64,000 nt of DNA from Thermoplasmata archaeon (lineage in GTDB: Archaea > Thermoplasmatota > Thermoplasmata > Lutacidiplasmatales > UBA184), in NCBI GenBank assembly GCA_027314165.1, contig DAHVCH010000001.1, positions 108,590 to 172,589 on the forward strand. The letters are read 5' to 3'. The notes beneath the pieces are model-generated. The model ran no database searches, was not told where the DNA came from, and saw nothing but the letters and a program-made list of their open reading frames with translations. Below are positions 1,982 to 61,689 of this stretch, piece after piece. Position numbers and translations under genes: made by a program. The stretch's first letter is position 1. The number at the start of each line of letters is the position of its first letter.

Positions 1982-3484
1982 CTAGCCCCAGTCGGCCCAG
2001 GGGAAGCCTTTCTCGAAGAGGACCCGCAAGGCCTCGGTCACCGCGGGAGAGGCCCCGGGCTCGGGAAGGAGGGAGAGCTTCCCCTGCCGGACGACGACCT
2101 CCTGCAAGTTCTTTCCGAACCCCATCTGCGGGAGCTCACGCTGCAGCAGCTCCCTCGCGTCGCGAAGCGACCGACGCACGTCGACCTGGAGCTTCCCCTC
2201 GGCCGTGAGGTACGGTCCGGCGATGCGGCTCTCGGAGGCGGAGCCCCACTTCTGCAGGAAGTTCCCCACCTCGTGGGAACCCGCCGGGGGGCCCGGGTGT
2301 CGCGCCAGGGGACCCAAGGTCCTCCGGTCGATCTCGACGAGGATCGCCGCCTCGCCGTCCGACTTCGCGGAGGCCGTGGCCAAGACCTCGAAGCCCCACC
2401 TCTCCAGGGGGCCCGCCAGGGCCCTCTCGCACTTGCGAAGCTGCGGGTAGAGGATGTCGTCGACGAGGTCGGGGGAGGGGAAGGTCAGCGCCACGACCTC
2501 GGTCCCCCGCTTCCGCGCCTCGGAGAGGAGGTCGTCGAACGACGGGACCGGGCGCTTCGGGGGGAGGAAGAACTCCCGACGGGGACGCGCCGTGTACGCC
2601 TCCACCGCCATGAGGAAGAGGGCGAGGTTCTTCTTCGAGAGCGCGGAGGCCACGTTGCGGTGGGGGTCCACCGGGTCGGGGAGCACGAGGGCGACCTCGG
2701 GGACCGTCGCGGGCTCCGGCCCCGGAGGGCAGAGACGCTGCGGTACGTGCCAGCGGGCGGCGTCGGCCATGAGCCCCCCGAAGGAGCCGTAGCGCACGAT
2801 GAGAAGCTCCACCAAGTACCCGGAAAACCCCTCGGTCCGGGTGTCCGCGCCGTAGACCCCCAGCGTCTTCAGGAGGCGTTTCAGCAATCGGACATCGTCG
2901 CGGGTCCTCTCGTTGAGCCGGGGAGAAAGGTAGGCGTGGTGGAAGGGGGTCCGGTCGACGGCGGTCTGGGGCCGGTCCGAACGCTCGACCTGGAAGCCGG
3001 GTACGGCGTCCACCGCGAACCCTTCGAAGGTCCCCCGAAGGTACGGATGCTCGGCGTACCGCTTCTCCGGGGACTGAAGGAACGTCTGCGCGAGCTCGAG
3101 CCCCAGGGAGGCGAGCCGCTCGCGAGGGAGCGAGGGGTCAAAGAGCATGAACAGGTCCATGTCGAGCCGGCCGCCCGCCGCCGGCGGCAGGTAGGTCTCT
3201 CTCGCGGCGCTTCCGGCGACCAGGGCTCGCTTGAGGGGGATCCCCCGGGAGGAGGCCTCCGCCTGGGCGCGGGCGACGATGCTCTCCCGAGCGCGCGCCA
3301 ACCTGGCGAGCTCCTCAGGGTCCGGACGCAGCCGGAGCGCGACCTCCTCTTCGAGCGGGGTCAGGGGCAGCGGCGCCTTGGGGGGGTCCCCTCCCTCGGC
3401 CGGAGGGCTCCTCGACGTCGGGGGACCTCGCGACACCCGTCGGGCATCTCCGTGCCCCCTCTTGAGCCCTCCCCCGTCCTTCAC
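1982..3484 (-). CDS. cca: archaeal class I CCA-adding tRNA nucleotidyltransferase
   Basis: The minus-strand ORF contains the Pol-beta-type NTase signature (GSAARETY...GGRLDMDLFMLFD) and C-terminal regions typical of archaeal CCA enzymes. The conserved N-terminus begins around residue 41 (LEEEVALRL...) with no canonical start codon there, so the upstream ATG at 3484 is used. The start is uncertain. Confidence 0.7.
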   Translation of the reverse strand: MKDGGGLKRGHGDARRVSRGPPTSRSPPAEGGDPPKAPLPLTPLEEEVALRLRPDPEELARLARARESIVARAQAEASSRGIPLKRALVAGSAARETYLPPAAGGRLDMDLFMLFDPSLPRERLASLGLELAQTFLQSPEKRYAEHPYLRGTFEGFAVDAVPGFQVERSDRPQTAVDRTPFHHAYLSPRLNERTRDDVRLLKRLLKTLGVYGADTRTEGFSGYLVELLIVRYGSFGGLMADAARWHVPQRLCPPGPEPATVPEVALVLPDPVDPHRNVASALSKKNLALFLMAVEAYTARPRREFFLPPKRPVPSFDDLLSEARKRGTEVVALTFPSPDLVDDILYPQLRKCERALAGPLERWGFEVLATASAKSDGEAAILVEIDRRTLGPLARHPGPPAGSHEVGNFLQKWGSASESRIAGPYLTAEGKLQVDVRRSLRDARELLQRELPQMGFGKNLQEVVVRQGKLSLLPEPGASPAVTEALRVLFEKGFPWADWG

Positions 3485-3521
3485 CGAGACATTATCCCTC
3501 GCGGGCCGGTCTATCGATGGA

Positions 3522-4604
3522 ATGGCGAGCGGTGCGACGTCCGAAGCGCCCGGGCACGCGGGCCTCCTCTACGAAGCGCTGCCCGGCGGGAAGGTGCGGT
3601 GCACCGCTTGCGCGCGCTACTGCGTGATCCCCCAGGGCTCCCACGGGTTCTGCTTCGTCCGGGCGAACCACGGGGGGAAGCTCGAGCTCCTCACCTACGG
3701 GAGGGTGGCCGCGGTCCAGGTCGACCCGGTCGAGAAGAAACCGCTCTCCCACTATCGGCCCGGCACCCGGGTCTTCGGCATCGGCACCCAGGGTTGCAAC
3801 TGGCGCTGCCAGTACTGCCAGAACTTCGAGATTAGCCAGGACCCTCGCGTGGCGGGACGCGACCTCTCCCCGGAGGAGGCCGCCGCCTGGGCGGTCCGAA
3901 AGGGGTGCCAGGGGATCACGTTCACCTACAACGAGCCTACGATCTTCATCGAGTACGCCTCCGACGTGATCGACGAGGCGCACCGTCGCGGCCTCTACGC
4001 GAACTTCGTCACGAACGGCTACATGACCCCCGAGTCCGTCGGACTTCTCCGGGGAAGGCTCGACGCGGTCTCGGTCGATTTCAAGGGCAGCGGTGAGCCC
4101 TCGTTCATGCGGAAGTACATCCAGGCGAAGGGACCGGATCCGATCTTCGAGTCCCTCGAGGGTCTCGCCAAGAACGGGACCCACGTCGAGGTCACGGACC
4201 TGATCGTCCCTCAGGTGGGGGACGACCCCGACGCGCTCCGCCGGCTGGCCTCCTGGGTCCGCGACCACCTGGGGGCGGAGACCCCGTTCCACCTGCTGCG
4301 CTGGCACCCCGATTACAAGATGAGGGACCTGCCCGAGACGCCGGTCCGGACCCTCGAGCGGCTTCACGCGGTCGCCAAGGCCGAGGGGCTGGACTACGTC
4401 TACCTGGGCAACGTCTGGGGCCACCCCCTGGAGCACACGTACTGCCCGAAGTGCGGAGCGATCGCGGTCGACCGCTACGGGTTCTACATCCGGGCTTGGA
4501 ACCTGGACGAGGAGAACCGTTGCCTGGAGTGCAAGCACCCCATCCCGATCGTCGGCACGCTTCCGAAGGGGTACGAGCCCACCCTCGTCACTCCCCTGAT
4601 GTGA
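3522..4604 (+). CDS. amrS: AmmeMemoRadiSam-system radical SAM enzyme (PFL-activase-like)
   Basis: Has the radical-SAM motif GTQGCNWRCQYCQN plus an upstream cysteine cluster (CTACARYCV...GFCFVR). The C-terminal CPKCG and CLECKHP are characteristic of this subfamily. The ATG at 3522 follows a relatively AT-rich spacer. Confidence 0.7.
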   Translation: MASGATSEAPGHAGLLYEALPGGKVRCTACARYCVIPQGSHGFCFVRANHGGKLELLTYGRVAAVQVDPVEKKPLSHYRPGTRVFGIGTQGCNWRCQYCQNFEISQDPRVAGRDLSPEEAAAWAVRKGCQGITFTYNEPTIFIEYASDVIDEAHRRGLYANFVTNGYMTPESVGLLRGRLDAVSVDFKGSGEPSFMRKYIQAKGPDPIFESLEGLAKNGTHVEVTDLIVPQVGDDPDALRRLASWVRDHLGAETPFHLLRWHPDYKMRDLPETPVRTLERLHAVAKAEGLDYVYLGNVWGHPLEHTYCPKCGAIAVDRYGFYIRAWNLDEENRCLECKHPIPIVGTLPKGYEPTLVTPLM

Positions 4605-12177: not shown

Positions 12178-12909
12178 CTACCGACGGCCCCGACGGTCCT
12201 CTCTCAGGGGATCGTTAACGTGTGCCTCACGGAACCCTTTCTCGCGCAGCCGGCAGGAGTCGCAGCGGCCGCAGGGACGACGACCGCCCGCGTAGCAGCT
12301 CCACGTGAGGGCCCACGGCACGTGCAGCCGCTCGCCCCAGAGGACGATCTCCGTCTTGGTGCGCTTGAGGAGCGGCGCCTCGATGGAGGGAGAGAGGCCC
12401 TCCTCGGTCCCCCGGGCGGTGGCGACCTTCGCCAACCGAGCGAAGGCCCTCAGGAACTCCGGTCGGCAGTCCGGGTATCCGGAGTAGTCGACCGCGTTGA
12501 CGCCCAGGTAGATCGCCTCCGCGCGGCGGGTCTCGGCCACCGCCAGCGCGAGCGAGAGAAGGACCGTGTTCCGGGCGGGCACGTACGTCGAAGGGATCCC
12601 GCCCCGGGCCATGCGGTCCGTGGCGCGGTCCTGGGGCAGCCGGGTGCCGGACCGGGTCAGGGCGGAGGGGGCCAGCGGACCCAAAGGCACGGACACCTCC
12701 AGCCGTTCGACGGCGCCAAAGTGCCGGGCGAGCGCCCGCGCCGAGCGGAGCTCGCGCGCGTGTCGCTGTCCGTACCGCACGGAGAGCGTGATGAGGGGAT
12801 GGCCCCGAGACCGCGCGATGGCGAGGACCGTGGCCGAGTCCATCCCGCCGGAGAGCAGGACCACGGCGGGCCCTCGGCGAGGCGGCACGGTCGGCTTCAG
12901 GGGCCCCAT
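12178..12909 (-). CDS. queC: 7-cyano-7-deazaguanine synthase (PP-loop ATPase)
   Basis: Has the PP-loop VVLLSGGMDSATV and the C-terminal zinc-binding CYAGGRRPCGRCDSCRLR characteristic of QueC. Confidence 0.85.
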   Translation of the reverse strand: MGPLKPTVPPRRGPAVVLLSGGMDSATVLAIARSRGHPLITLSVRYGQRHARELRSARALARHFGAVERLEVSVPLGPLAPSALTRSGTRLPQDRATDRMARGGIPSTYVPARNTVLLSLALAVAETRRAEAIYLGVNAVDYSGYPDCRPEFLRAFARLAKVATARGTEEGLSPSIEAPLLKRTKTEIVLWGERLHVPWALTWSCYAGGRRPCGRCDSCRLREKGFREAHVNDPLREDRRGRR

Positions 12910-13696
12910 AGCAGGTACATCCCGAGAGCGATGAGCGCGGTGAAAAGCATGGCGAGGAAGTTGACCGACCCCTTTCCGAGGTACCCCCGGTTCTCGAGCG
13001 TGGCTCCCAGGAGGCTGTCGATCTGGCAGCCCAGGAACCCGAGGAACGTCCCTCCTGCGAACCAGAGGACGACCGAGGTTGGCAGCTCCACGAGCCCGCC
13101 AAAGGTGTAGAATATCCCGGCCCCCGCGGCGACGGTGACGAGGCTGCCGAGAAGCGCCCAGAGCTCCCCGCCGAAGCTGATGCCCCCGTTCGTGCCCGCC
13201 TTGACAGGCCCGGTCCCCAGGATGCTCACGGCCTTCCCGGAGAGCACGCCGAACTCGCTTGCGAAGGTGTCCGCCGTCCCGCAGGCGAGGGCGGCCACGT
13301 AGACGAACGGGACGAGGTTCTGGGGCAGCGCGCCGAGGAGGGAAAGGGGACCGACCAGGACGAGCCCGAGCGGGACCAGGATGTGCGAAAGGACGTTGCG
13401 CACCCCGCGCTCCCCCGCCTTCCCCTCCGACACCTTTCGCGCTTTCTTCTCCTCCCAGCCGTACCGGGTGGCCAGGCTGCCACCGAGGACGAAGAGGATC
13501 AACATCGCCAGGTAGGAGGGGCCCCCGACGAGCACGATCACGATCCCGAACACGGTGGCGAGGAGGGCGGCGTAGGGGGTCAGGACCTTGGCGTAGGCGG
13601 CGGCGATCCCCAGGGCGAGGGTGACCCCGACCGAGATGGCCAGGGCCCAGCCTCCCAACGAGCCCGCGGCTACGGCCAGGGGCACAGCTAAGCTCA
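12897..13696 (-). CDS. polytopic membrane protein (DUF92/TMEM19-like), 7-8 TM helices
   Basis: The C-terminal 265 aa of minus ORF 12897..14093 are strongly hydrophobic with regular TM spacing. The first ~130 codons of that ORF are GC-rich junk. A likely TTG/GTG start near 13696/13684 sits downstream of a TTTTATA element (minus strand, 13731-13738). Confidence 0.45.
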
Positions 13697-13796
13697 AGGA
13701 CTCCCCCAGTGGCCGCGCTCGTCCTGGCGGTATAAAAGACCCCCGATGAGAGTGACCAAAGCTCAGGTAGGGGGTCCGCCCTCCCCCGCAGTGGTC

Positions 13797-14795
13797 ATGA
13801 GGTCGGGGGAAGGCGTCCGGAGGGGGCGGGCGCCCGTGGGAGTTGGGGGCCCGAGCGGGAAGCACCCTCCCTTCCCTTTCCGCGCCCTCGCTCGCGGGTC
13901 CCTCTTCCACACCCCCCTCGGGGTCTCCCTGGTGGGGGACGCGCTTGGGGTCCTGCGCACGCTCCCGTCCTCCCGCGTCGACCTGGTCGTGACGTCCCCC
14001 CCCTACGATGGGCAACCGAAGTACGGGGATGGAGAGTCGTACGACCGCCGATGGTACGAGGGGTACTTCCTGGAGGTGACCCGGGAGGTCCACCGCCTGC
14101 TCCGACCGCGAGGGAGCTTCGTACTGAACTACCGTTCGAAGCGCTCAGGCCACGAGCGCGGCACGCTCCAGTACGAGCTCGTCCTGGCCCTGCGGGCCCA
14201 GGGGTTCCTCTTCTGCGAGGACTTCGTGTGGGGAAAGCCCTCCCCGCCTCCCGGGAAGTTCCGTCGTTTCCTGAAGGACGCGGTGGAGTACTGCTTCCAG
14301 TTCGCGAAGGGGCCCGACTGGCAGTTCTACCCGGAGCAATGCCTCTCCCCCGCCCGGTGGGACGCGAAGGACCGTGCCCGTCGCAGGGCCCTTCCCCAGA
14401 ACTACCTGCGCGTGGACGAGCCCTCCGGGCAGGGGCGACGACGGGCCCTCGCCGGCCCGGACATGGTCCGCCCTTCCACACTTCTGCTCGTCGAGCCCGA
14501 GTTCTCCCGCAACCCCACGGAACATCCTGCGCGGTTCCCGGTGGACATCCCCGAGTTCTTCCTGCGCCTATTGACCCGGTCCGGGGATGTGGTGCTGGAC
14601 CCGTTCGGCGGCACCGGGACCACCGCGGTCGCCGCAGAACGGCTGGGCCGTCGGTGGGTCGTGGTGGAGAACGAGGCGCGCTACGCCAGGGCGATCGAGC
14701 GAAGGCTCCAGGTGGACGCGCCGCGACCGAAGGGCGGGAAGGGCCCCCGCTCAGGAGCCCGCTCTCGGCGCGGGACCGACCCCCCCGAGCCTTGA
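13797..14795 (+). CDS. site-specific DNA methyltransferase (beta-class N4-cytosine/N6-adenine, ParB/DNA_methylase_N-4_N-6 family), orphan
   Basis: Has the catalytic motif IV DLVVTSPPYDG after the N-terminal GDALGVLRTLPSSRV, and a C-terminal SAM-binding motif I VVLDPFGGTGTTAVAAERLGRRWV (circularly permuted beta-class order). No restriction endonuclease gene is adjacent. Confidence 0.8.
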   Translation: MRSGEGVRRGRAPVGVGGPSGKHPPFPFRALARGSLFHTPLGVSLVGDALGVLRTLPSSRVDLVVTSPPYDGQPKYGDGESYDRRWYEGYFLEVTREVHRLLRPRGSFVLNYRSKRSGHERGTLQYELVLALRAQGFLFCEDFVWGKPSPPPGKFRRFLKDAVEYCFQFAKGPDWQFYPEQCLSPARWDAKDRARRRALPQNYLRVDEPSGQGRRRALAGPDMVRPSTLLLVEPEFSRNPTEHPARFPVDIPEFFLRLLTRSGDVVLDPFGGTGTTAVAAERLGRRWVVVENEARYARAIERRLQVDAPRPKGGKGPRSGARSRRGTDPPEP

Positions 14796-35665: not shown

Positions 35666-36580
35666 GCCCCCGAAGGAAACCCCCGCGGGCGCGCCTCCTC
35701 GACGAGCGGGTGCGGCGATACTACCTCGGATACGACGAGGAGGGACGTCTCGCGAAGGACCCGTTCCATCGCCTGGAGTTCGACACGACGCTGCGGTACC
35801 TGGAGCGCGTCCTCCCCCCCCCGCGGCCACATCTTGGACGCAGGGAGCGGACCGGGGCGATACGCGGTGGCACTCGCCCGACGGGGGCACACCGTGTCCC
35901 TGATCGACCTCATGCCGGAACACGTGGAGGCCGCGCGGCGTGCAGCCGCACGAGCTGGGGTCGCGCCCGATCTCCTCGACTTGCGGTCGGGTTCGTTGGA
36001 CGACCTGTCTTTCTTCCCCGATTCGGGGTTCGCAGGGGTTCTGTGCCTCGGGTCGGCGCTCGGCCACCTTGTGGACCCGGTCCGTCGGGCCCGCGCCTTG
36101 CGTGAGCTCTTTCGCGTCGCACGCCCGGGAGCCCCGGTCTTCGTCTCGGTCATCGGCCGGCTCTGTCTGCTCGGCTCCAGCATGCTCGCCAACCCCGGAG
36201 AGTGGCAGGTGGACCCGGCGATGTACCGCCGCATCGAGCGAACAGGGGACTACGACGGCCATCGGGGGTTCGCGCCCTGCCACTTCTTCCTGGTCGAAGA
36301 GCTTCAGGAAGAGATGCGAAAGGCCGGCCTCACGATCGAGACCACCGTCGGGCTCCAGGGGCTCGTCCCACCCTACCCCAAGCAGATCTCCTCTGCCGCC
36401 CGAAGATACCCCAAGGCGTTCCGGGCCTGGTTGGAACTCCTCTACAGGTCCTGCGAAGACCCCGCGGTCGTGCCCTTCAGCCAGCACTTTCTCGTGATAG
36501 GGCGGAGGCCCGGGAGTCTCCCGGTCGGTCCGGAGGGACGTGGGGGACGGTCCCGCCGCGATTCGCGGACCTCCGGATGA
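35662..36580 (+). CDS. class I SAM-dependent methyltransferase (Methyltransf_11/12-like), reading frame interrupted at a poly-C tract
   Basis: The N-terminus MSPRRKPPRARLLDERVRRYYLGYDEEGRL...RYLERVLPPP (frame 1) continues as RGHILDAGSGPGRYAVALARRGHTVSLIDLMPEHV (motif I, frame 2) after a 9-C run at 35814-35822. One missing or extra C restores a single ORF. Confidence 0.6.
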
Positions 36581-36707
36581 TGGATGGGCGGTCCGGAGCA
36601 GGACCGGGAACCCCTCGCCGGCTTTCGACCGAGAAGCAAGGAGAGAGCGTGAGCGGCGACAATTCACGCGTACATTCCTTAATATCAATGGGACCGGTCG
36701 TGAACTC

Positions 36708-39701
36708 GTGCCCTGGCGAGGAGAGACTTCCCCGCAACCCCGGCGCCGCCTTCCACTCCGCGTCCGGTCGATCCTCGCTTGCGCGGTCCTGATCCTCCTG
36801 CTGACCGTGCTTCAGGGGCAGTTGGGTGGGTGGGCCTCGGCGCGAGCTCCGGCCCTGTCCATGCCTCATGCGGGGCCCTCCGGTTCGGCCGGTGTCCCCT
36901 CCGCCTCTCATGCCGCCACCGTGGTGAGCCGACCTGCGACGGCCACGGGTTCTCCGACCAGCGGTGGGTTCATGGGGGCTCTCACCGGCTTCCTTTCCGC
37001 GATCTCGCACCGCCCCTCGGCGGGTCCTCCCCTTCCGAACATCACCGGGGGGAACATCACCGGGTTCTCGCTGGCGATGGTCGGGGTGGGGCTCACCGGC
37101 AATTCGGGATTGCAGTTCTCCTCGGCCATCGGGGAGATGCCCAGCGGTGCGAACTCCTCGACCTACCTCTTCTCGCTCCTCGGGGAGACGGTGAGCACCA
37201 ACTCCACGGCCTTCGTAGGGTACATCGAAGGGTCGCTCGGCGGGATCACGGGCGCGCTTCCGCTCTATCTCGTGCTCAACGGGACCACCCTCGGCGCCTG
37301 CGGGTTCGGAAGCTTCACCAGCGTCATGCTCCCGGGGCCGACCGTCCATCAGTTCTCGATGGTGCAGGACCACGGGTACTGGTGGAACTTCCTCTTGGAC
37401 GGCTCGATCATCTCCGGCGGCTCCGGCCTGGGGGGCACCGGGAGCTTCTGTGCCGGGTCCGGCAACGGCACGGTCGACCTGTATGCGTCGGCCACTGCGC
37501 TCCTGTTCATACCGCTGTACGCCTGGATCCTCTCCGCGAACGTTTCGGGGTTCGTCGGCTCCACCGTTCAGACCGTCTCGGAGTACCGGACCGGGACCAC
37601 GTGGACCCAGTCCATCTCGGGCATTGTGGTCACCGACACCTCCGTCGGGCTCGCGGGGTACGACCAGGACAGCACGATACCCCCGGACCAGGTCCAGGTG
37701 GGGCCCCCGCGCACGGTGCTGAACAGCACCACTGCCGTCTGGAGCACCGGACCGCTGCCTTCCTTGACGCTCGACGAGCAGGGCGTACCCTCGACCATGT
37801 ATGCTGGGCAGACGGTCGACCTCACGGCGTGGGTCAATGACAGCTCGACCAAGGTCGGAGTGGGTACGGCGACCCTCTCCCCGACGTCCAGCTCGGGCGG
37901 CAGCTTCCTGATGACCGGGTCCGGTCCGTCCGCGGGAGAGTTCCACCTTTCGTATGCGGCACCGCTCCCCGCGAAGCAGGACAATCTGACCCTTCTCGCC
38001 ACGGGTCCCGGGTACGTCGGGGTCCGGCACACCTACGTCCTCACGATCGCCCCCGTCCACCTGGTCTTCTCGGCCCATCCCCCGTCCGGGCCGCTCTTCT
38101 CCGGCGCCACCCGGAGCGTCCCCTTCACGATCAACGCCAGCTACGGCGTGCCGTTCTCCCCTGCCCAGGTGTCGGTCTCCGTCCGGGGCGGAGGCACCGC
38201 GACGGTGCTGTCCATTCCGGCGTCCTCGGTCGGGTCCTATGTCGTCGAGCTGACCGCGCCGATGTTCAACGAGCCCTCGATCTCCGCCGTGACCATCACG
38301 GGGTCGGGTCCTGGCGTGGTCACCCAGTCGACCACCTTCAGCGTGCGGATCGAGCCGCGACCCCTGGCGGTCCTCGGACCGACCGGAGGGTTGGTGTGGG
38401 CTGGGGCCCGACTGTCCTTCAACCTCTCCCTATCGACCCCGTCGGGCGCGCTTCCGAGCGTGACGTCCACCTGGTGGAACGCGACGGTCAGGAACGCGAG
38501 CGGGACCGACCTCCTGACAGTGGGTGGCGGGGCCTCGATCACCCCGCACGACGGATGGGCTTCCCTCCAGGTGGCACTTCCCGCACACTACGTGGGCCCG
38601 CTGTGGTTCTGGGTCAACGTCTCCGCTCCCGGGTTCAACCAGACCGTCTCCAGCTGGTGGGAGAACGCGACGGGCAACCTCTCGTTGGAGCTCCAGGGCC
38701 TTCCCGCCGTCATGTCCGGCGGCGACCATGCGACGCTGACCTTGCGAGTCCTGGGCCTCGGAGGCGTCCCGATCTATGGGGCACCGGTGGTGTGGTCCGC
38801 GAACTTCGGTGGGTTCGGTTCTGCCGACCTCCCGACCGTCACGGGATACACCGATGTGAACGGAGCGACGTCGGTCAGTTTTGTCGCCCCTAGCGTGGCC
38901 AACACGACCGACATCGATGTCTCCGCGGCCGTCCTATACCCCTACTACACGGCGGGTCACGCGGTGAGCTCGGGCACGGCCGCGCCCTCGGCAGGGGGCC
39001 AGCTCGGGAGCGGGATCGACAACGGGATGGCCATCATCGACCTCCTGCTGGCGCTTGTCGTGCTGGCGCTCATCCTGGCCATCTTCGCGGAGTCGCGAAG
39101 CCGCCACGAGCGCGAAGCCCGAAGTGCGGCAGCGACCGGGGCTGTCGCCATGCGGCCATGGGCCTCGTCCGATCCCAGCGAGGAGCTCGGGTCGGAAGGG
39201 AAGGCTCCGTGGCCCGGCGGGACCAGCGCGAAGTACGTGGAGGAGGAGCTTGGAGCGTCCGACCACCCTCCCGAGCCCGCCGCTCCCAAGGCCGACCCAT
39301 CCCCGAAGGGAGCGAACGGTTCTCCCGGACAGGAGCCTAAGGCGAGCACGAGCGCCCGATCGCCCGCCGAGACCTCGGAGGAGCTCGGGTCGGAGGGGAA
39401 CTTCCACGGGACCTCTGGAGACCCCGCGGGCGGGGACTCGGGGGACGCAGCTCCGGGAGGGTCCCCCGCGGTGGGCGGACCCTCGACCCAGTCCAGTTCC
39501 CCGTCCCCCACCCCCGAGGCTCCTTCGGCTCCATCGGCTTCTTCGGCGCAGTCCGCCGGCGGGGAGGAGAAGGTTCCGGTTTCCGAGGAACCCACGAGCG
39601 CGGAGTCCACGACCTCCGGGAAAGCGATGGCCGGGTCCTCCTCCTCGAAGCCGGTAAAGGCGAAGAGGACGCCCAAGACCCGCTCCGGCCCTTCGGATTA
39701 G
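36708..39701 (+). CDS. archaeal cell-surface glycoprotein (S-layer-like): signal peptide, Ser/Thr/Gly-rich ectodomain with many N-x-S/T sequons, C-terminal TM anchor and acidic tail
   Basis: An N-terminal RRR + hydrophobic stretch (SILACAVLILLLTVL) follows a GTG at 36708, and a TATA-like TTAATATCA at 36679-36687 is ~27 nt upstream (leaderless). There are more than 20 sequons (NITGGNITG, NSST, NGTT, NVSG, NLTL, NASY...). The C-terminal TM is IIDLLLALVVLALILAIF, followed by a charged S/E/P-rich tail. Confidence 0.65.
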   Translation: MPWRGETSPQPRRRLPLRVRSILACAVLILLLTVLQGQLGGWASARAPALSMPHAGPSGSAGVPSASHAATVVSRPATATGSPTSGGFMGALTGFLSAISHRPSAGPPLPNITGGNITGFSLAMVGVGLTGNSGLQFSSAIGEMPSGANSSTYLFSLLGETVSTNSTAFVGYIEGSLGGITGALPLYLVLNGTTLGACGFGSFTSVMLPGPTVHQFSMVQDHGYWWNFLLDGSIISGGSGLGGTGSFCAGSGNGTVDLYASATALLFIPLYAWILSANVSGFVGSTVQTVSEYRTGTTWTQSISGIVVTDTSVGLAGYDQDSTIPPDQVQVGPPRTVLNSTTAVWSTGPLPSLTLDEQGVPSTMYAGQTVDLTAWVNDSSTKVGVGTATLSPTSSSGGSFLMTGSGPSAGEFHLSYAAPLPAKQDNLTLLATGPGYVGVRHTYVLTIAPVHLVFSAHPPSGPLFSGATRSVPFTINASYGVPFSPAQVSVSVRGGGTATVLSIPASSVGSYVVELTAPMFNEPSISAVTITGSGPGVVTQSTTFSVRIEPRPLAVLGPTGGLVWAGARLSFNLSLSTPSGALPSVTSTWWNATVRNASGTDLLTVGGGASITPHDGWASLQVALPAHYVGPLWFWVNVSAPGFNQTVSSWWENATGNLSLELQGLPAVMSGGDHATLTLRVLGLGGVPIYGAPVVWSANFGGFGSADLPTVTGYTDVNGATSVSFVAPSVANTTDIDVSAAVLYPYYTAGHAVSSGTAAPSAGGQLGSGIDNGMAIIDLLLALVVLALILAIFAESRSRHEREARSAAATGAVAMRPWASSDPSEELGSEGKAPWPGGTSAKYVEEELGASDHPPEPAAPKADPSPKGANGSPGQEPKASTSARSPAETSEELGSEGNFHGTSGDPAGGDSGDAAPGGSPAVGGPSTQSSSPSPTPEAPSAPSASSAQSAGGEEKVPVSEEPTSAESTTSGKAMAGSSSSKPVKAKRTPKTRSGPSD

Positions 39702-39705
39702 CGCC

Positions 39706-40554
39706 TCAAGGGCACGGCGGCGACCACGCGCCGCGGTCGGTCCAGACCTGGCCGATCCAACGCCAAGGAGTCTCATCGAACAAGAGGGACCGCGTTCTCC
39801 CCCTCCGAGGGCGATAGGGCAGGACCCTCGAGGATGGTACCAGGGCGACGAAGTCGACCCCGCGACGGTGCGCCATGCGAGCCACGCGTCGCGTGCCGAC
39901 CTTGTGCACCAGGGTACCGTCCGCATAGAGCGTATCGGCGCCGACCAGGACCACAGCCGAGGGTCCGAGGGCCACTTCCAGGTCGTCGTCCTCGACCATG
40001 CGGGCGTTCAGACCGTGGGCCTTCAGTTCCCGGGCCATGTCGGCCCCTTCCCCACCCGGCAGGCTGCGGAGCACGACGACCTCCGTAGGTCGACGACGGC
40101 GCGGCAGTCGACGCAGGACCTCCGAGACCGTGCTAGAACGGCTGAGTGTGACCACGACCGCCCGGACGGGGAAGCGGCGTGCCGCGAAACGCACCAGCCT
40201 CCCGATCTCGCGTGAGAGCTCTCGTTCCTTTCTTGAGAGGAGGACGCGCAAGCCGCGTCGGGACGGCTCGGGCCCCGCTTCCTGAACCCAGGAACTGACC
40301 TCCTCCGCGAGCCGCACGAGCCCTCCCATCGAGGGTTGAGCGGCGCGCATGCCCCGGCACCACCGGAGGAGCCAGGCGACCTCGACCTCTCTCAACTTCG
40401 GGGGCCCCTCGCGAGCCAGGGGGCGGAGCGAAACGAGCGCCCTGCGCTGAAGCTCGGAGGCGCCATGCGTTCGGTCCGTGGCGAGGGTGTCCCAGGGCGC
40501 CGCGGCCCGCCGCGCGCGTCCGCGATGGCGGGTCCGGCTCCCGGATGCGCTCAC
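39706..40554 (-). CDS. eIF-2B alpha/beta/delta family protein (ribose-1,5-bisphosphate isomerase-like, e2b2)
   Basis: Has the family core GADTLYADGTLVHKVGT and an upstream Rossmann-like region VVVTLSRSSTVSEVL. It is 282 aa. Confidence 0.7.
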   Translation of the reverse strand: MSASGSRTRHRGRARRAAAPWDTLATDRTHGASELQRRALVSLRPLAREGPPKLREVEVAWLLRWCRGMRAAQPSMGGLVRLAEEVSSWVQEAGPEPSRRGLRVLLSRKERELSREIGRLVRFAARRFPVRAVVVTLSRSSTVSEVLRRLPRRRRPTEVVVLRSLPGGEGADMARELKAHGLNARMVEDDDLEVALGPSAVVLVGADTLYADGTLVHKVGTRRVARMAHRRGVDFVALVPSSRVLPYRPRRGRTRSLLFDETPWRWIGQVWTDRGAWSPPCP

Positions 40555-40994
40555 GCTCTGTCGCTCTCCTCACGAACCTTCAATTGCGTTCATGGCTCGA
40601 CGGGATGGGGCCCCGTGACCGGATCCAGCGCGCCCCGGCGGACGGCCTGGATCGTGGCTCCGCCCAGCCTCTGCACCTTGTGCAAGGGCCCGCTGACCTC
40701 CGAGGCGGAGACCAGCGCGTGGAACGGCCAGCCCGCGCATCGGGACTGCGTTCGCATCCATCTCCTGCAACGCGATCCGGCCTTCCGGGACTGGGGGGGC
40801 GAACCTCCTGCCGAAGATGCCCCGGATGAGGGCATGTCGGACCTCGGGAACCGGGAGGACGACGAGGATGGCCCGGAGTAGACATCGTCCTCTCCCGGAG
40901 CCGCGGAACGGGGCTCTCCGATAAGGGAGAACGCTCTTCGACGTAGGATATTTAAGGCACAACCGGTCCTGTACGGTTCAACGGAGGCTACGCC

Positions 40995-42593
40995 ATGCCG
41001 GAAGTGGTCATCACCTGCGATTGGACGATGATGAGCAACCACCACGGGAAGGAATTCCTGGGTTTTGGGACCACGACCCCGTCGTTCCTGCTGCCCGAGC
41101 GTGTGTTCAAGACCCTGTTCTTCCCGACCATGAAGTGCGACGAGGAGGGCCACCCGGAGCAGGCCCCCTACGGGATGCGGAAGGTCGAGGCCTCCCTCCT
41201 GGACGCCGGCATCGACGCCCGCATCATCCACCCGAGCTACCTGGAGCGGTACATGCCCGGGAAGGCGAAGGTGCTGATGATCAGCGGGCACGACTACCTC
41301 GGTCTGAACCCGCCGTCGACCACCTTCAGCGGGATCATGAAGGGCCGGCCCCCGCTTAACCGTGTGAATTTCATGCGGATGCTCCGGATGCCGCACGTCC
41401 TCGAGGCCCGACGCCAGGGGATGAAGCTCATCGCCGGGGGTCCGTGCGCCTGGCAGCTCTCCCCGGCGACGCAGGTCAAGGTGCCCTGGATCGGGGACTT
41501 CGTGAAGGAGATCGGGGGCGTCGACGCCATCGTGGAGGGCGAGGCCGACATCTTCGTGCGGGACATCGTGAAGATGGCCCTGAAGGGCGAGCCGCTGCCT
41601 CCGCACACGTTCCTCCCTCCCAAGGTCGCCCCGAAGATCGAGGAGATCTCCACGATCCGCTATCCGTCGGTCAACGGGCTCGTCGAGATCGGACGGGGAT
41701 GCTGTCGCGGGTGCACGTTCTGCTCGGTCACGACCCGCCCGACGCGCTGGTACCCCTACGAGAAGATCGAAGAGGAGCTCAAGATCAACGCCGCGATCGG
41801 GATCAAGAAGGGCCTTCTGCACTCCGACGACGTCTACTTCTACGGCTCCCCGAACATCATGCCGAAGGAGGAGAAGCTGGTCAAGCTCATGCAGCTGGCC
41901 AAGCGGTACTACTCCCACGTGGGCTGGAGCCATGTCGCCGTCGCCTCGCTCATGACCAAGCCTCGGCTGCTCCCGAAGCTCCGCGACGTCCTGCTCACCG
42001 GTGACCAGACCTGGTGGGGGGTCGAGATCGGCGTCGAGACGGGAAGCCCGCGGATGATCACCTCGACGATGCCGGGCAAGGTCGCCCCGTTCAAGGCGTC
42101 CCAGTGGCCCGAGCTCGTCGTGCAGGCGGCCGGGCTCATGAACGACAACTCGGTCTTCCCCGCCTGCACGTTCATCGTCGGACTGCCCCAGGAAACGGAG
42201 GACGACGTCATCAAGACCATCGACCTCATCGATGACCTCTGGGACTTCCGGGCCATCCTGGTCCCGATGTTCTTCGTGCCTCTGGGCCATCTGAACAAGA
42301 CGAACTGGTTCACCCGCGATCGCATCACCGCCCGCCAGAAGGAGCTCCTCACCCGCGCTCTGACCCACGGGCTCCGGCAGTCGACGAGCATGCTCCGGGA
42401 CTTTTTCGAGGAGAAGGACGCCTACCGCGGGGGATACATCGCCGCCTACCGGGGGTTCATCACCTTCCTGCTCGCCCTCGCGAAGATGAAGGGCCTCTAC
42501 AATCCCCCCAAAGCCTCCGAGGTCCCGGCGCTGGAGAGCCCGCTCAACCACCCCGAGCGCCTCCCGTTGCCCACGATCCCGGTCCGGGACTAG
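40995..42593 (+). CDS. radical SAM enzyme with N-terminal B12-binding-like/Rossmann domain (uncharacterised subfamily)
   Basis: Has the radical-SAM motif GRGCCRGCTFCSV (Cx3Cx2C) ~230 aa from the N-terminus. It is 532 aa. A TATA-like GATATTTAAGG lies at 40947-40957 and a GGAGG 6 nt before the ATG. Confidence 0.7.
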   Translation: MPEVVITCDWTMMSNHHGKEFLGFGTTTPSFLLPERVFKTLFFPTMKCDEEGHPEQAPYGMRKVEASLLDAGIDARIIHPSYLERYMPGKAKVLMISGHDYLGLNPPSTTFSGIMKGRPPLNRVNFMRMLRMPHVLEARRQGMKLIAGGPCAWQLSPATQVKVPWIGDFVKEIGGVDAIVEGEADIFVRDIVKMALKGEPLPPHTFLPPKVAPKIEEISTIRYPSVNGLVEIGRGCCRGCTFCSVTTRPTRWYPYEKIEEELKINAAIGIKKGLLHSDDVYFYGSPNIMPKEEKLVKLMQLAKRYYSHVGWSHVAVASLMTKPRLLPKLRDVLLTGDQTWWGVEIGVETGSPRMITSTMPGKVAPFKASQWPELVVQAAGLMNDNSVFPACTFIVGLPQETEDDVIKTIDLIDDLWDFRAILVPMFFVPLGHLNKTNWFTRDRITARQKELLTRALTHGLRQSTSMLRDFFEEKDAYRGGYIAAYRGFITFLLALAKMKGLYNPPKASEVPALESPLNHPERLPLPTIPVRD

Positions 42594-42626
42594 CGCGGGA
42601 GAAAAGGACCGTCGGGGGCCTTCTTC

Positions 42627-43994
42627 GTGGACCGAGAATCTTCTCCCTCCGTGCCGCACCCTGTCCGGTCGCTGCCACCCTCGGGGCTCCGTGCGCTGCG
42701 TTGCGTCCCCCTGAAGAACTTCCTCACGGCAGACCCCCAAGTACGGACGATCGACCGACCCGTCGACCTCCGCTTCGAGGTCGCGCGCGAGCTGCTGAGA
42801 CCCCCCGAGCCTCCGGTCTGGTTCCGGGGACAGAAAGAGGGCGGGCTGGTCGGGAACCTCTGGACGAGCCGGGACCGGGTCGCCCGGTACTTCGGGGTGG
42901 AGCCGCGGGCCCTTCCTGACCTCCTGCTGGAGGCCCTCGAGCACCCGATCCCTCCCGAGGTCGTCCCCGCCTCCCAGGCCACCTGGTCCGCGCGGGAGGG
43001 CCCCGCCGACCTGACGCACCTTCCGATCCCGTTCTTCTATCCCGAGGATGCCGGACCCTACCTGAGCGCGGCGGTCTTCTCGGCCGCGTGGAAAGGGAAG
43101 AGGAACCTCTCCTTCCACCGCATTTGGGCCCGGGGTCCGACCGGAGGGCCCGTGCGTCTCGTGCCGCGCCACCTGGACCGCATGGTCCGGGAGGCCCGAA
43201 AGGAGAACACCGAGCTCCCCGTCTCGATCGTCCTGGGCGGCCCCCTCGAGTTCCTGCTGGCGGCCGCGGTCTCCACGGACTACGCCACCGACGAGATGGA
43301 GATCGCCTCCGCCCTCTGCCGAAAGCGGCTCGGACGACCGCTCAGGGTGGTCGAACTGGACAACGGGACCCGCGTCCCCGCCGAGGCGGAGATCGTGTTC
43401 GAGGGACGGTTCACCCGGCAGGACGAGCAGGAAGGTCCCTTCCTCGACATCCTCGGCACCTACGACGCGGTGCGCGAGGGGCCGGTCCTCGAGCTCACCA
43501 AACGGCGCTCCGTGGAGGACCCGATACTACCGGTTATCGTCGGAGGCGCCCAGGAGCACTTCCTCCTCATGGGACTCCCCCGGGAGCCGATGATCCTGCG
43601 GGCCGTGCGCGCGGTCGTGCCCGGGACCAAGGCCGTCCGCCTGACCGAGGGGGGGGCCGCGTGGCTGCACGGTGTCGTCTCGATCGAGAAGCGCCGGGAC
43701 GGCGACGGGCGGAACGCCATCATGGCCGCCCTTTCCGGTCACGCCTCGATGAAGAGGGTCATCGTCGTGGACCACGACATCGACATCTTCGACGACCGGG
43801 AGGTCGAGTGGGCGCTCGCGACCCGGTTCCAGGCCGACAAGGGCCTGCTCACGGTCCCGCACGCCGTCGGCTCCTCGCTCGACCCGAGCGCGAGCACCGA
43901 CGGGCTCACGTGCAAGTGGGGTCTGGACGCGACACTCCCGATGAAGACCGACCGGCGGCCCTTCACGAAGGGCCGCCTGCCACCCCCCGACTGA
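42627..43994 (+). CDS. UbiD-family (prFMN-dependent) decarboxylase
   Basis: Has the UbiD-family motifs EQEGPFLDILGTY, the metal/prFMN-binding region, and the C-terminal RFQADKGLLTVPHAVGSSLDPSAS. It is ~430-455 aa and lies 34 nt downstream of the radical SAM gene on the same strand. Confidence 0.8.
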   Translation: MDRESSPSVPHPVRSLPPSGLRALRCVPLKNFLTADPQVRTIDRPVDLRFEVARELLRPPEPPVWFRGQKEGGLVGNLWTSRDRVARYFGVEPRALPDLLLEALEHPIPPEVVPASQATWSAREGPADLTHLPIPFFYPEDAGPYLSAAVFSAAWKGKRNLSFHRIWARGPTGGPVRLVPRHLDRMVREARKENTELPVSIVLGGPLEFLLAAAVSTDYATDEMEIASALCRKRLGRPLRVVELDNGTRVPAEAEIVFEGRFTRQDEQEGPFLDILGTYDAVREGPVLELTKRRSVEDPILPVIVGGAQEHFLLMGLPREPMILRAVRAVVPGTKAVRLTEGGAAWLHGVVSIEKRRDGDGRNAIMAALSGHASMKRVIVVDHDIDIFDDREVEWALATRFQADKGLLTVPHAVGSSLDPSASTDGLTCKWGLDATLPMKTDRRPFTKGRLPPPD

Positions 43995-54949: not shown

Positions 54950-55971
54950 AGATCGGGGTCCTGACCGGCGGGGGCGACTGTCCAGGGCTGAACGCCGCCG
55001 TTCGCGGCGTGGTCTACCGCGCCACCCGGCAGGGCCACACCGTCGTGGGCTTCCTGGACGGTTGGAAGGGCCTCCTGGATGGCCGCACGATGGAGCTCGA
55101 GCGCTCCCGCTTGCAGACGCTGATCGGCAAGGGGGGAACGCTCCTCGGAAGCTCGCGCACGAACCCGTTCAAGACCGAGGAGGGGGCGCAGCAGGTGCTC
55201 ACCACCTTCCGAGAGAAGGGCCTCGACGCGCTCGTCGCGATCGGCGGGGACGACACGCTCACCGCCGGGAGGGAGCTTCACCGGCGCGGAGGACGCGTCG
55301 TGGGCGTCCCGAAGACCATGGACAACGACGTCAACGCCACGGACTGGACCTTCGGTTTCGACTCCGCCAGCAGCGTTGCCGTCGAGGCGCTGGAGCGCCT
55401 GCGGGACACCGCGGACAGCCACCACCGGGTCATCGTGCTGGAGGTCATGGGGAGGCACGCCGGCTGGGTGGCCCTCGCGACCGGGATCGCCGGAGGGGCG
55501 GACTACACGCTGCTTCCGGAGGAACCCTTCCAGGAGGAGGACCTCCTGCTCTCCGTCAAGAGGGCCGTTCAACAGAAGGGCTACGCGCTGGTCGTGGCGT
55601 CGGAGGGGGCCCAGGTCTCCCCGAAGCTGAAGGCCGGCGAGGCCGCGAAGGACGACTTCGGGCACGAGATCCTCCGCGAGAAGGGCGTCGCCCCCTTCCT
55701 AGCGGACCTGCTGGAGAAGAAGGCCGGGGTGGAGTGCCGTAGCGCCGTCATCGGGCACATCCAGCGCGGCGGACCGCCCACGCTCTTCGACCGGCTTCTC
55801 GCCACCCGCTTGGGCGCCAAGGCGGCGGACCTCGTGGCGGCGGGGGACTTCGGCAAGGTGGCCGTGCTCCGGGGAGACCGGGTGGTCGGCGTGTCGTTCG
55901 ATGAGGCCATCGGGGCCCCCAAGCTGGTCTCCCAGCCTTGGCTGGACCTCCTCCACACCTTCGACAGCTAG
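54946..55971 (+). CDS. pfk: 6-phosphofructokinase (PfkA family)
   Basis: [30 protein letters not shown] and PKTMDNDV are canonical PFK motifs. The GTG start overlaps the stop of the preceding gene. Confidence 0.85.
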   Translation: [341 protein letters not shown]

Positions 55972-56003
55972 ATGCCCTCGGAACGCCGTCGCTCTCGAGT
56001 ATC

Positions 56004-57182
56004 ATGTCCGTCCCGGGGAGAAGGAAAGGACCGACGGAACGCACGGCGGCGAGCCGCCCGTCGCGCCCTTCGCTCCCGACCTCCTCATCCCCCCGCGGGT
56101 CCGAGACGGACGGGAAGGGGGACAGGGTCCGCGCGCTCTGGTGGGAGCAAGGGGCCCTCCGCGCGATCGACCAGCGTCACCTTCCGCGTCGCGTGAAGGT
56201 CCTCCGCCTGACCGACGTCCAGGGGGTCGCGGAGGCCATCCGCACCCTGGCGATACGCGGGGCTCCGTGCATCGGTGTCGGGGCCGCCTACGGCATGGTC
56301 CTCGCGCAGAGGAGTGGCCATCTCGGCTCGGAGGAGGCGGCCCGGCTTCTCGGGGGAACCCGTCCCACCGCCCACGACCTGTTCGTTGGGGTCGAGGTCG
56401 TGCAACGGGCCTGGGAGGACCACGAGGACGTCCTGGAGGCCGCCGACCGGTACCGAGGCTCCGTGGTCCAGGAGTGCCGACTCATCGGTGAGGCCGGAGC
56501 TCCCCTCGTGTCCCGGGGCGCACGGGTCCTGACCCACTGCAATGCCGGCGCGCTCGCCACCGTGGAGTGGGGGACCGCTCTCGCCCCGATCCGCTTCGCC
56601 TTCCGGGAGGGTCGAGACCCCTTCGTCTGGGTCGACGAGACCCGCCCGCTGCTCCAGGGGGCGCGCCTCACCGCCTGGGAGCTCGGACAGGAAGGGATCC
56701 GCCATGCCGTCATCGCCGACAATGCCGCCGGACACTTCCTCTACCGAAAGGAGGTCGACCTCGTCGTCGTCGGCGCGGACCGCATCACGCGGTCGGGCGA
56801 CTTCGCGAACAAGGTGGGGACCTACGAAAAGGCGGTGCTGGCGAAGGAGAACGGGGTGCCGTTCTACGTCGCCGCGCCCTGGAGCACCTTCGACCCGCGC
56901 CTGACCTCGGGCGACGAGATCCCGGTGGAGGAGCGCGCGGGGGAGGAAGTGACGAGCTGGGGGAACGTGCCGACCACCCCCGTGGGGACTCCCGCGCGGA
57001 ACCCGGCCTTTGACGTCACCCCGGCCAAGTACGTGACCGCGTTCATCACCCCCGCCGGGGTCGTGGCCCCGAGGGAGCTCTCGACACTGCTCCGGCAGCG
57101 GCGTCCCTCGGCCCTCTCCGTACGGACACGACCGGAAGGGTCCACGTCCGCCGTTCCCGGCGCCTCCGGCCTGTCCCGGTGA
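56004..57182 (+). CDS. e2b2/MtnA-family isomerase (ribose-1,5-bisphosphate isomerase or methylthioribose-1-phosphate isomerase)
   Basis: ALWWEQGALRAIDQRHLP, GAPCIGVGAAYG and GADRITRSGDFANKVGTY are family hallmarks. The ATG at 56004 follows the pfk stop. Confidence 0.75.
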   Translation: MSVPGRRKGPTERTAASRPSRPSLPTSSSPRGSETDGKGDRVRALWWEQGALRAIDQRHLPRRVKVLRLTDVQGVAEAIRTLAIRGAPCIGVGAAYGMVLAQRSGHLGSEEAARLLGGTRPTAHDLFVGVEVVQRAWEDHEDVLEAADRYRGSVVQECRLIGEAGAPLVSRGARVLTHCNAGALATVEWGTALAPIRFAFREGRDPFVWVDETRPLLQGARLTAWELGQEGIRHAVIADNAAGHFLYRKEVDLVVVGADRITRSGDFANKVGTYEKAVLAKENGVPFYVAAPWSTFDPRLTSGDEIPVEERAGEEVTSWGNVPTTPVGTPARNPAFDVTPAKYVTAFITPAGVVAPRELSTLLRQRRPSALSVRTRPEGSTSAVPGASGLSR

Positions 57183-60729: not shown

Positions 60730-61689
60730 CTACGCGGGGTCGGCGATGACCACGGTGCCCGCCTGCCCCTTCAGGGCCATCGGGAAGTGGTCCGAGTCGG
60801 TGATGATCGCACGTTTTCCCCCATCCTTCAGGAAGGCCAGGGCGGCCTCGACCTTGGGGCGCATGCTCCCTTCACCGAACTCGCCCTGGAGGAGGTGCTC
60901 CCTCATCTCGGAGGCCCTCACGCGCCCGAGCCGCTTCTCCCGCGCGGTCCGGAACCCGAGGCACACTTGGGGGACGTCGGTCAGGATCGCGAGGTCCTCC
61001 GCCCCCACGGTGCTCCCGAGCAGCGCGGCGGTACGGTCCTTGTCGATGACTGACTCGACCCCCTCGAGGGTGCCGCGGTGTCGGGACACCACCGGGACCC
61101 CTCCACCGCCCGCCAGGAGCGGCAGCATCCGGCGTCCGAACCCCCTCTCGAAGAGCTCTCGCAGCACGGGACCTTCGACGATGCGCTGCGGGATCGGGGA
61201 AGGGACCACCCTCCGCCATCCGCCCCGCGCCATGTCGTGCACCATGGTCCACCCGCGCTGCTTGATGCAGAGGCGAGCCTCGTTGTCCTCGTAGAACCGA
61301 CCGATGGGCTTGGTCGGATGCTGGAAGGCGGGGTCCTTCGGGGAGACCTCGACGCGGGTCACGATCGGAATGACGAACCTGTCGACATGGGCGCGGTGAA
61401 GCGCCGACGTCAGTTCCTGCTGCAGGAGGTAGCCTATCCAACCCGCCGTGGCGGCGCCCACCGCGTCGAGGGGGAGGGGCTCCACCTCCCGGGTGGCCTC
61501 CTGCTGGAGCAGGAGGTTGCCCACCTGCGGGCCGTTACCGTGGGTGAGGACGATCTCGGCCCCCCGGGCCGCGAGCCGGACCACAGGGCCGACCACGCTG
61601 CGCGCGTTCTGACGCGCCTCCTCCCAGGTCCCCTTCTCCCCGGCCCGGGAGATGGCGTTCCCCCCGAGAGCGATCACGACACGGCCCAT
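60730..61689 (-). CDS. arcC: carbamate kinase
   Basis: The N-terminus MGRVVIALGGNAI, the motif VLTHGNGPQVG, and the overall 319-aa length match the carbamate kinase family. Confidence 0.8.
   Translation of the reverse strand: MGRVVIALGGNAISRAGEKGTWEEARQNARSVVGPVVRLAARGAEIVLTHGNGPQVGNLLLQQEATREVEPLPLDAVGAATAGWIGYLLQQELTSALHRAHVDRFVIPIVTRVEVSPKDPAFQHPTKPIGRFYEDNEARLCIKQRGWTMVHDMARGGWRRVVPSPIPQRIVEGPVLRELFERGFGRRMLPLLAGGGGVPVVSRHRGTLEGVESVIDKDRTAALLGSTVGAEDLAILTDVPQVCLGFRTAREKRLGRVRASEMREHLLQGEFGEGSMRPKVEAALAFLKDGGKRAIITDSDHFPMALKGQAGTVVIADPA

Follow-up and report, generated by a model that had tools for sequence, protein, structure and literature searches.

A probable two-gene operon of uncultured Thermoplasmata pairing a GrsA-type tetraether ring synthase with an AMPD-like UbiD decarboxylase

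A 64,000-nucleotide stretch of DNA from a Thermoplasmata archaeon (assembly GCA_027314165.1, contig DAHVCH010000001.1, positions 108,590 to 172,589), here called the window and numbered from its first letter, carries a gene for a radical S-adenosylmethionine (SAM) protein followed closely by a gene for a UbiD-family decarboxylase. GC content is 67-73% along the full 64 kb, and the nearest database relatives of the window are uncultured Thermoplasmata. The pair probably represents two known isoprenoid-lipid enzymes brought together in a lineage-specific two-gene operon, and not new chemistry. One is a GrsA-type glycerol dialkyl glycerol tetraether (GDGT) ring synthase; the other is a UbiD protein of the archaeal group typified by anhydromevalonate phosphate decarboxylase (AMPD). 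The elements of the two-gene unit are as follows:

40995..42593, + strand: putative grsA-type gene for a GDGT ring synthase (B12-like radical SAM protein), 532 aa, ATG start; from PF04055, GrsA homology and an AlphaFold2 (AF2) model.
42627..43994, + strand: UbiD-family decarboxylase of the archaeal AMPD-like group, 455 aa, GTG start; from UbiD_N/UbiD/UbiD_C, TIGR00148 and Pyrococcus furiosus homology.
42594..42626, + strand: spacer between grsA and the UbiD gene, 33 nt (57 nt with the GTG start at 42651), free of promoter-like and terminator-like features.
40944..40957, + strand: TATA-like AT-rich element TAGGATATTTAAGG (GATATTTAAGG at 40947-40957), a candidate archaeal promoter for grsA; sequence confirmed.
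40983..40987, + strand: GGAGG, a candidate ribosome-binding site whose end is 7 nt from the grsA ATG downstream; seen in the sequence itself.

Both open reading frames (ORFs) were found as an earlier sequence-only reading had described them, including the 532-aa length and the CX3CX2C motif of the radical SAM protein, and the domain calls made there were borne out by Pfam and TIGR00148. An alternative in-frame GTG at 42651, favored by gene callers on the identical contig, would shorten the UbiD protein to 447 aa. The proposed operon-like arrangement also holds: the spacer, at 33% AT, is free of AT-rich islands, and there is no support for a terminator or attenuator hairpin in it, the best hairpin being no better than those of shuffled sequence (z = 0.79). 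A spacer of this kind is consistent with co-transcription, and the two genes are real and probably co-transcribed. The TATA-like element and the GGAGG that had been noted before the radical SAM start are both in place. The TATA-like element precedes the grsA ATG by 38 nt, which is within the range of distances seen for other gene-proximal islands. Only 21 AT-rich islands occur in the 64 kb of 70% GC DNA; roughly nine are found 13-85 nt ahead of a gene start, about eight different starts being involved. Since such islands are rare and often gene-proximal, the one before grsA is a credible archaeal promoter element, from which the UbiD gene would most likely be transcribed as well.

The radical SAM protein is, from its homology and architecture, clearly an ortholog of the GrsA-type GDGT ring synthases, with predicted cobalamin binding and ring-forming activity. 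In a direct BLASTP comparison it is 47% identical to Sulfolobus acidocaldarius GrsA (AAY80898.1) over 463 residues (E 3e-156), the alignment covering 87% of the window protein and 92% of the deposited GrsA. In the field, Grs homology is called at 20% identity or more, 70% coverage or more and an E value of 1e-40 or less, and the window protein lies beyond all three limits. AAY80898.1 is the experimentally characterized S. acidocaldarius GrsA of Table S1 in bioRxiv 10.1101/2022.08.15.504015; the comparison sequence (P0414) was identified as AAY80898.1 by cluster look-up, and the link to GrsA was made by matching this accession to that table. The identity between GrsA and GrsB is 31%, and homologs that share 48-54% of their residues with GrsA share 28-34% with GrsB; the accepted GrsA-type homologs of the ring-producing Thermoproteus and Pyrolobus reach 51% and 48% identity to GrsA, respectively (bioRxiv 10.1101/2022.08.15.504015). 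By these published identities, and so indirectly, without the GrsB sequence itself, the window protein appears closer to GrsA than to GrsB.

Within the protein, Pfam Radical_SAM (PF04055) matches residues 230-412 (E 1.3e-13), and the protein contains EIGRGCCRGCTFCSV, with the cluster motif GRGCCRGCTFCSV (CX3CX2C). Across 79 homologs the only invariant cysteines are C236, C240 and C243, which implies one [4Fe-4S] cluster and no auxiliary cluster. Sampled at one genome per species, the family spans Thermoplasmata, Aciduliprofundum, Bathyarchaeia, Sulfolobaceae, Pyrobaculum/Thermoproteus, Thermofilaceae, Pyrodictiaceae, Nitrososphaeria and Nezhaarchaeota, and also covers Desulfurococcales and Thermoproteales. 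This spread fits the reported distribution of Grs (bioRxiv 10.1101/2022.08.15.504015) and thereby supports the Grs identity. The protein is below the cutoff of every named NCBIfam radical SAM subfamily, and the names of its homologs in two large database searches are generic only. Public annotations of the gene read "radical SAM protein", "YgiQ family" or even "MiaB" and miss the Grs function, which has reportedly been known since 2019.

Two other identities were rejected. The protein has no match to the model for tetraether synthase (Tes, NF045702), and a separate, true Tes is present in locus L003. As a MiaB/RimO methylthiotransferase or a methyl-coenzyme M reductase (MCR) glutamine methylase it reaches 20-57 bits against cutoffs of 250-600, and it has no N-terminal cluster cysteines.

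The AF2 model (predicted local distance difference test score 91.4) consists of a Rossmann-like N-domain with alternating strands and helices (residues 1-210) and a radical SAM barrel. Grs proteins are described as having a Rossmann-like domain, a CX3CX2C barrel, C-terminal helices and no auxiliary cluster (PMC13459092). The window protein agrees with this layout, which supports the Grs identity. The B12-like N-domain that had been proposed from the sequence stands in part. A Rossmann/B12-type fold is present in the AF2 model, and Foldseek comparison with the PDB retrieves the cobalamin enzymes MgmA, TsrM, CysS and TokK; on the other side, Pfam B12-binding has no match in the protein, and MiaB and AprD4 fit about equally well, all with template modeling scores of about 0.5. 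In sequence searches, solved structures give weak matches to the radical SAM core only (best 9ccb, E 1.6e-7). The modeled fold thus suggests a B12-like domain at the fold level but is no proof that cobalamin is bound; for GrsA and GrsB themselves, cobalamin binding is likewise a prediction (PMC13459092).

It is quite improbable that the window protein is a Grs-family member with a tetraether modification other than the C-7 cyclization of GrsA, such as another ring position or another outcome of hydrogen abstraction. Homologous lipid radical SAM enzymes do differ in reaction (Gmm, Cgm, Ted; GrsA vs GrsB), the lipids of these uncultured Thermoplasmata are not known, and the Thermoplasmatota of Table S1 (T. 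acidophilum, A. boonei) have other Grs types (bioRxiv 10.1101/2022.08.15.504015). Against this, the 47% identity to GrsA falls in the range of the Thermoproteus and Pyrolobus orthologs and well above the GrsA-GrsB value, and the family is very strongly conserved (mean column identity 54-61% between phyla), which points to one common function.

Gene neighborhoods, too, fit the Grs identity, with genes of known or possible lipid modification near several GrsA-type genes. In Bathyarchaeia and one Nezhaarchaeota, the GrsA-type gene is beside a gene for a canonical B12-binding radical SAM protein (L004 10001-12890, L005, L052, L078 and L085; the two are 1.1 kb apart in L073). The best NCBIfam matches of this neighbor are BchE and HpnJ, both below cutoff. 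The tetraether desaturase Ted has been reported beside a grs gene, the same arrangement as in these Bathyarchaeia loci. In a distant Thermoplasmata relative (L003 2810-8077), a "MAST" family gene (PF27849), a Tes gene (586 bits; cutoff 450) and a digeranylgeranylglycerophospholipid reductase gene lie upstream of the GrsA-type gene, with Tes and the geranylgeranyl reductase 2-5 kb from it and genes for a tRNA-intron endonuclease, a small GTPase and a SPOUT methyltransferase in between. GrsA-type genes also occur in three loci labeled as bacterial metagenome-assembled genomes ("bacterium" or Krumholzibacteriaceae; L028, L036 and L081). These labels could reflect mis-binning or horizontal transfer; horizontal transfer of grs has reportedly been seen in Acidobacteria.

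The second protein has the complete three-domain UbiD architecture (Pfam UbiD_N, UbiD and UbiD_C) and scores 282 bits with the NCBIfam UbiD family model TIGR00148 (cutoff 245). Its best matches outside its own clade are archaeal, including Methanomassiliicoccales, with 47-53% identity and about 405-420 bits. Its best named relative is P. furiosus AAL81262.1 (48% identity over 90% of the length, 407 bits), to which the name AMPD was given by UniRef rather than through experiment. Residues N160, S162, H164 and R165 (NxSxHR) and E269, G270, P271, F272 and D274 (EGPFxD) are invariant in the window UbiD clade; we take these motifs to serve metal and prenylated flavin mononucleotide (prFMN) binding and catalysis. 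The clade also keeps 96 of 118 family-conserved columns (81%). AMPD is a prFMN-dependent enzyme that converts trans-anhydromevalonate 5-phosphate to isopentenyl phosphate, and it is said to have been experimentally characterized in Aeropyrum pernix and Methanosarcina mazei.

A metagenome scan in which an alignment restricted to the window UbiD clade was used as query yielded 80 further AMPD-like UbiD proteins of 37-51% identity; it gave no further clade members, all relatives being at or below 51%. In 20 of these 80 loci the UbiD gene, whose product is then 38-42% identical to the window protein, directly adjoins genes for aconitase X (AcnX), with both subunits in 14 and the large subunit only in 6 short contigs. 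Aconitase X matches PF04412 (450 bits), and the AcnX swivel subunit, seen in loci that are long enough, matches PF01989. Archaeal two-subunit AcnX is phosphomevalonate dehydratase (PMDh), the enzyme that makes the AMPD substrate. Where both subunits were seen, they lie downstream of UbiD on the same strand or convergent to it, and form with it a compact lower-mevalonate-pathway cluster. The archaeal mevalonate pathway is taken here as summarized in PMC9385802. Linked loci include:

L154, L165, L166, L168, L172 (6001-8855), L175, L177, L179, L180 and L182-L187: AcnX-linked UbiD loci.

In neighbor-joining (NJ) trees, which were unrooted or midpoint-rooted, without bootstrap, without a non-AMPD outgroup and without characterized AMPDs, the window UbiD clade nests in a half that holds the Thermoplasmata, Methanomassiliicoccales and Pyrococcus sequences, opposite a half formed by the PMDh-linked genes. 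Such a pattern would be expected of a single orthologous family that follows the phylogeny of its host organisms. Other Thermoplasmata AMPD-like UbiD genes occur in unrelated contexts, the sister group having the order tRNA synthetase, PKD, UbiD and peptidase M6. From these comparisons the assignment of the window UbiD as an AMPD is likely, not proven.

Besides the naming of the P. furiosus protein and the construction of the trees, several points weigh against the reading of the pair as two known lipid enzymes. No PMDh, UbiX, isopentenyl phosphate kinase (IPK) or Tes gene was found within the 64-kb window. The window UbiD clade is separated from all other matches by an identity gap from 60% to 51%, 22 of the 118 conserved positions are relaxed in it, and it has seven clade-specific fixed substitutions, among which are changes in basic residues (G333, R356, R357). 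The gap, the substitutions and the linkage to grsA of every member checked would also fit a diverged paralog.

That the UbiD protein is not an AMPD at all but another prFMN decarboxylase, acting for example on an aromatic, a heteroaromatic or a quinone precursor and adjoining grsA by chance, is unlikely. Its closest solved structure by sequence is the UbiD-family chain 6h6v (E 1.7e-68), presumably the furandicarboxylate decarboxylase HmfF, the tool output giving a generic name only. Furthermore, only the generic UbiD subfamily model passed its cutoff, with no match to an AMPD-specific NCBIfam model, and mevalonate genes are absent from its surroundings both in the window and in close relatives: the window UbiD and the members of its clade have grsA, MscL or EamA, and JAB as neighbors, with no AcnX or other mevalonate gene beside them. 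An amino-acid-kinase gene at 60730-61689 was considered as a mevalonate-pathway kinase and rejected, its product being carbamate kinase. The scores run the other way. The protein is far closer to the archaeal AMPD-like proteins than to solved non-AMPD UbiD structures, which give at most 235 bits, and the models for VdcC (175 bits vs 650), menaquinone decarboxylase (99 vs 496) and UbiD (75 vs 788) are far below their cutoffs. The adjacency to AcnX/PMDh in a quarter of the scanned loci likewise points to AMPD for the family as a whole.

The adjacency of the two genes is lineage-specific, being found in one subgroup of uncultured Thermoplasmata, and within it is tight and conserved. Seen from the UbiD side, the gene lies directly behind grsA in all eight distinct members of the window UbiD clade that were checked, the deepest branch included. 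In L008 the two genes are separated by 4 nt; in L009 and L010 they overlap by 1 nt, and in L103-L105 by 4 nt. What follows UbiD is variable: MscL (on either strand), EamA, or JAB directly. Genomes with the pair include GCA_028867515.1, GCA_028867375.1 and GCA_027376275.1, and the complete chromosome OY970259.1 is an example of a relative that lacks it. From the GrsA side, UbiD follows in only 3 of ~33 evaluable species-level loci with 69-81% identical GrsA. In the ~30 that remain, grsA leads straight into a block of JAB, NAD kinase and inositol phosphatase genes. No UbiD gene was found within 10 kb of GrsA in 44 distant orthologs, and no GrsA gene near the 80 other AMPD-like UbiD genes of the metagenome loci. 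In a rooted NJ tree of GrsA, one subgroup is never found with UbiD, and the other holds all UbiD-linked loci together with two that have none (L014 and L036). This split, with its two exceptions, fits one UbiD insertion followed by at least one later loss. At shared loci, identities are 74-81% for GrsA, 62-67% for UbiD and 53-56% for NAD kinase; the divergence of UbiD lies between those of its two neighbors, so that the distinctness of its clade is compatible with ordinary divergence.

These distributions bear on the main inference of the sequence-only reading, that the pair may define a new or different reaction pair. A functional partnership of this kind would have the grsA-linked UbiD as a neofunctionalized prFMN paralog that works with the ring synthase on an isoprenoid or lipid intermediate, with a canonical AMPD encoded elsewhere in the genome. 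The invariable position of the clade behind grsA and the overlaps or 4-nt gap in several relatives speak for it, as do the identity gap, the relaxed positions and the fixed substitutions, among which a basic residue is lost at 333 and R356 is gained. It is nevertheless very improbable on the rest of the evidence. UbiD chemistry needs a carboxylate substrate, and GDGT lipids have none. The catalytic motifs and most of the family-conserved columns are retained in the clade, and its distinctness can be accounted for by ordinary divergence. GrsA orthologs persist with no UbiD nearby in about 30 close and 44 distant species-level loci, which indicates that GrsA works across archaea without a UbiD partner. 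Ring formation in S. acidocaldarius depends on GrsA and GrsB alone (PMC13459092). Even in the UbiD-linked GrsA subgroup, L014 and L036 lack the UbiD gene. A dedicated linkage across lineages is therefore not seen, and the proposed new pair gives way to an ortholog of GrsA that mostly lacks UbiD nearby and a UbiD that falls inside the AMPD-like family. The same reading had rightly named AMPD and the archaeal lipid-modifying radical SAM enzymes as the things to check, and had held that a UbiD in the AMPD clade with mevalonate-pathway neighbors in related genomes, and a radical SAM gene with no conserved linkage to it, would speak against a new pair. The UbiD is AMPD-like, more distant members of its family have AcnX/PMDh neighbors, and the linkage is not general; within the one Thermoplasmata subgroup it is nonetheless conserved.

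With GrsA kept where UbiD is missing, Sulfolobus rings needing only GrsA and GrsB, and UbiD needing a carboxylate, two known enzymes in one transcription unit is the simplest reading. The GrsA-type protein would abstract hydrogens from the biphytanyl chains of membrane-spanning tetraethers and close cyclopentane rings, and the UbiD protein would carry out the prFMN-dependent AMPD step of the archaeal mevalonate pathway. The two would then act at opposite ends of the pathway, in late lipid tailoring and in precursor supply, respectively, and share no substrate. The UbiD gene would have been inserted behind grsA, ahead of the JAB/NAD-kinase block that is conserved throughout the clade, in one high-GC subgroup, and two isoprenoid-lipid genes have most likely become one operon in this way in a single Thermoplasmata subgroup.

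Both genes are new members of known families, with no new chemistry indicated, and the findings are of use mainly for improving annotation and for marking these Thermoplasmata as likely producers of cyclized GDGTs. A probable GrsA-type ring synthase is now assigned to widespread uncultured Thermoplasmata of high GC content, many of which stem from metagenomes of soil and peat. These organisms are candidate sources of ring-bearing GDGTs, which bears on the interpretation of tetraether biomarkers in such settings. The presence of genes for precursor supply and late lipid tailoring in what is probably one transcription unit also offers a possible case for studying the co-regulation of lipid synthesis.

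A further conserved element precedes the grsA promoter region:

40582..40881, + strand: small conserved ORF of ~80-90 aa ahead of grsA; its exact start is uncertain, with conservation beginning near 40615.

The product has a CxxC...HxxC pattern and an acidic tail, and no Pfam match. Its + strand translation is conserved (E 1e-20 to 1e-37) in 41 of 41 same-clade grsA loci, with or without UbiD; the minus-strand ORF of 55-57 aa that gene callers place at this site scores only 1e-5 to 1e-13 and was judged a mis-call. Counterparts lie at about 9588-9884 in L001, about 9640-9888 in L002 and about 8059-8295 in L103. The small protein could be a zinc-binding partner or regulator of grsA.

Several other genes of the window deserve mention. 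The 1053-aa protein encoded at 36540-39701 (+) is Ser/Thr/Gly-rich and has a long low-complexity tail of Pro, Ser and Glu. A single hydrophobic segment lies close to its C-terminus, and its match to Big_1 (Ig-like) is weak and falls below the Pfam cutoff; its equivalent in L001 was called as 907 aa. It is probably a surface or S-layer-type protein. Two genes belong to the IF-2B/ribose-1,5-bisphosphate isomerase family, at 39706-40554 (-) and 55938-57182 (+), and the product of the first, beside grsA, is short (282 aa), its match to the family profile being confined to the C-terminal half. The ORF of an AmmeMemoRadiSam-system radical SAM protein (3231-4604, +) overlaps the gene for a CCA-adding enzyme (1982-3484, -) by about 250 nt; since its domain match begins only at residue 115, translation probably starts downstream of the first start listed. 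A DUF92/TIGR00297 integral membrane protein with an N-terminal extension of ~155 aa is encoded beside QueC at 12897-14093 (-).

Among known systems, Tes and GDGT/MAS are likewise radical SAM enzymes that act on archaeal lipid tails, and Tes lies 3 kb from the GrsA-type gene in L003. Tes belongs to another radical SAM family, and the window protein has neither a match to its model nor the extra clusters; no solved Tes-like chain appeared in the PDB sequence search of the window protein at E up to 1. The cobalamin-dependent (class B) radical SAM enzymes MgmA (9ccb), TsrM (6wte), TokK (7kdy) and CysS (9n1c) have a two-domain fold in common with the AF2 model (Foldseek E 1e-9 to 5e-16). They are only 12-16% identical to it and act as methylases, in contrast to Grs, which makes C-C bonds inside a lipid chain. 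The P. furiosus AMPD-like protein resembles the window UbiD in its three domains, in nearly half of its residues and in both the NxSxHR and EGPFxD motifs. The window protein differs in forming a clade of its own that is never beside PMDh and is beside grsA in every member checked, and its AMPD activity and prFMN use are predicted. The closest likeness is that of the radical SAM protein to S. acidocaldarius GrsA (Saci_1585): both have the CX3CX2C motif, the Rossmann-like N-domain, the barrel and the C-terminal helices, both lack auxiliary-cluster cysteines, and both belong to a family broadly distributed in archaea. The window protein extends ~30 residues further at the C-terminus and, like its close relatives, carries a short insertion around residues 160-170. 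Unlike in Sulfolobaceae and most other lineages, its gene is followed by UbiD, and its host is an uncultured high-GC member of the Thermoplasmata.

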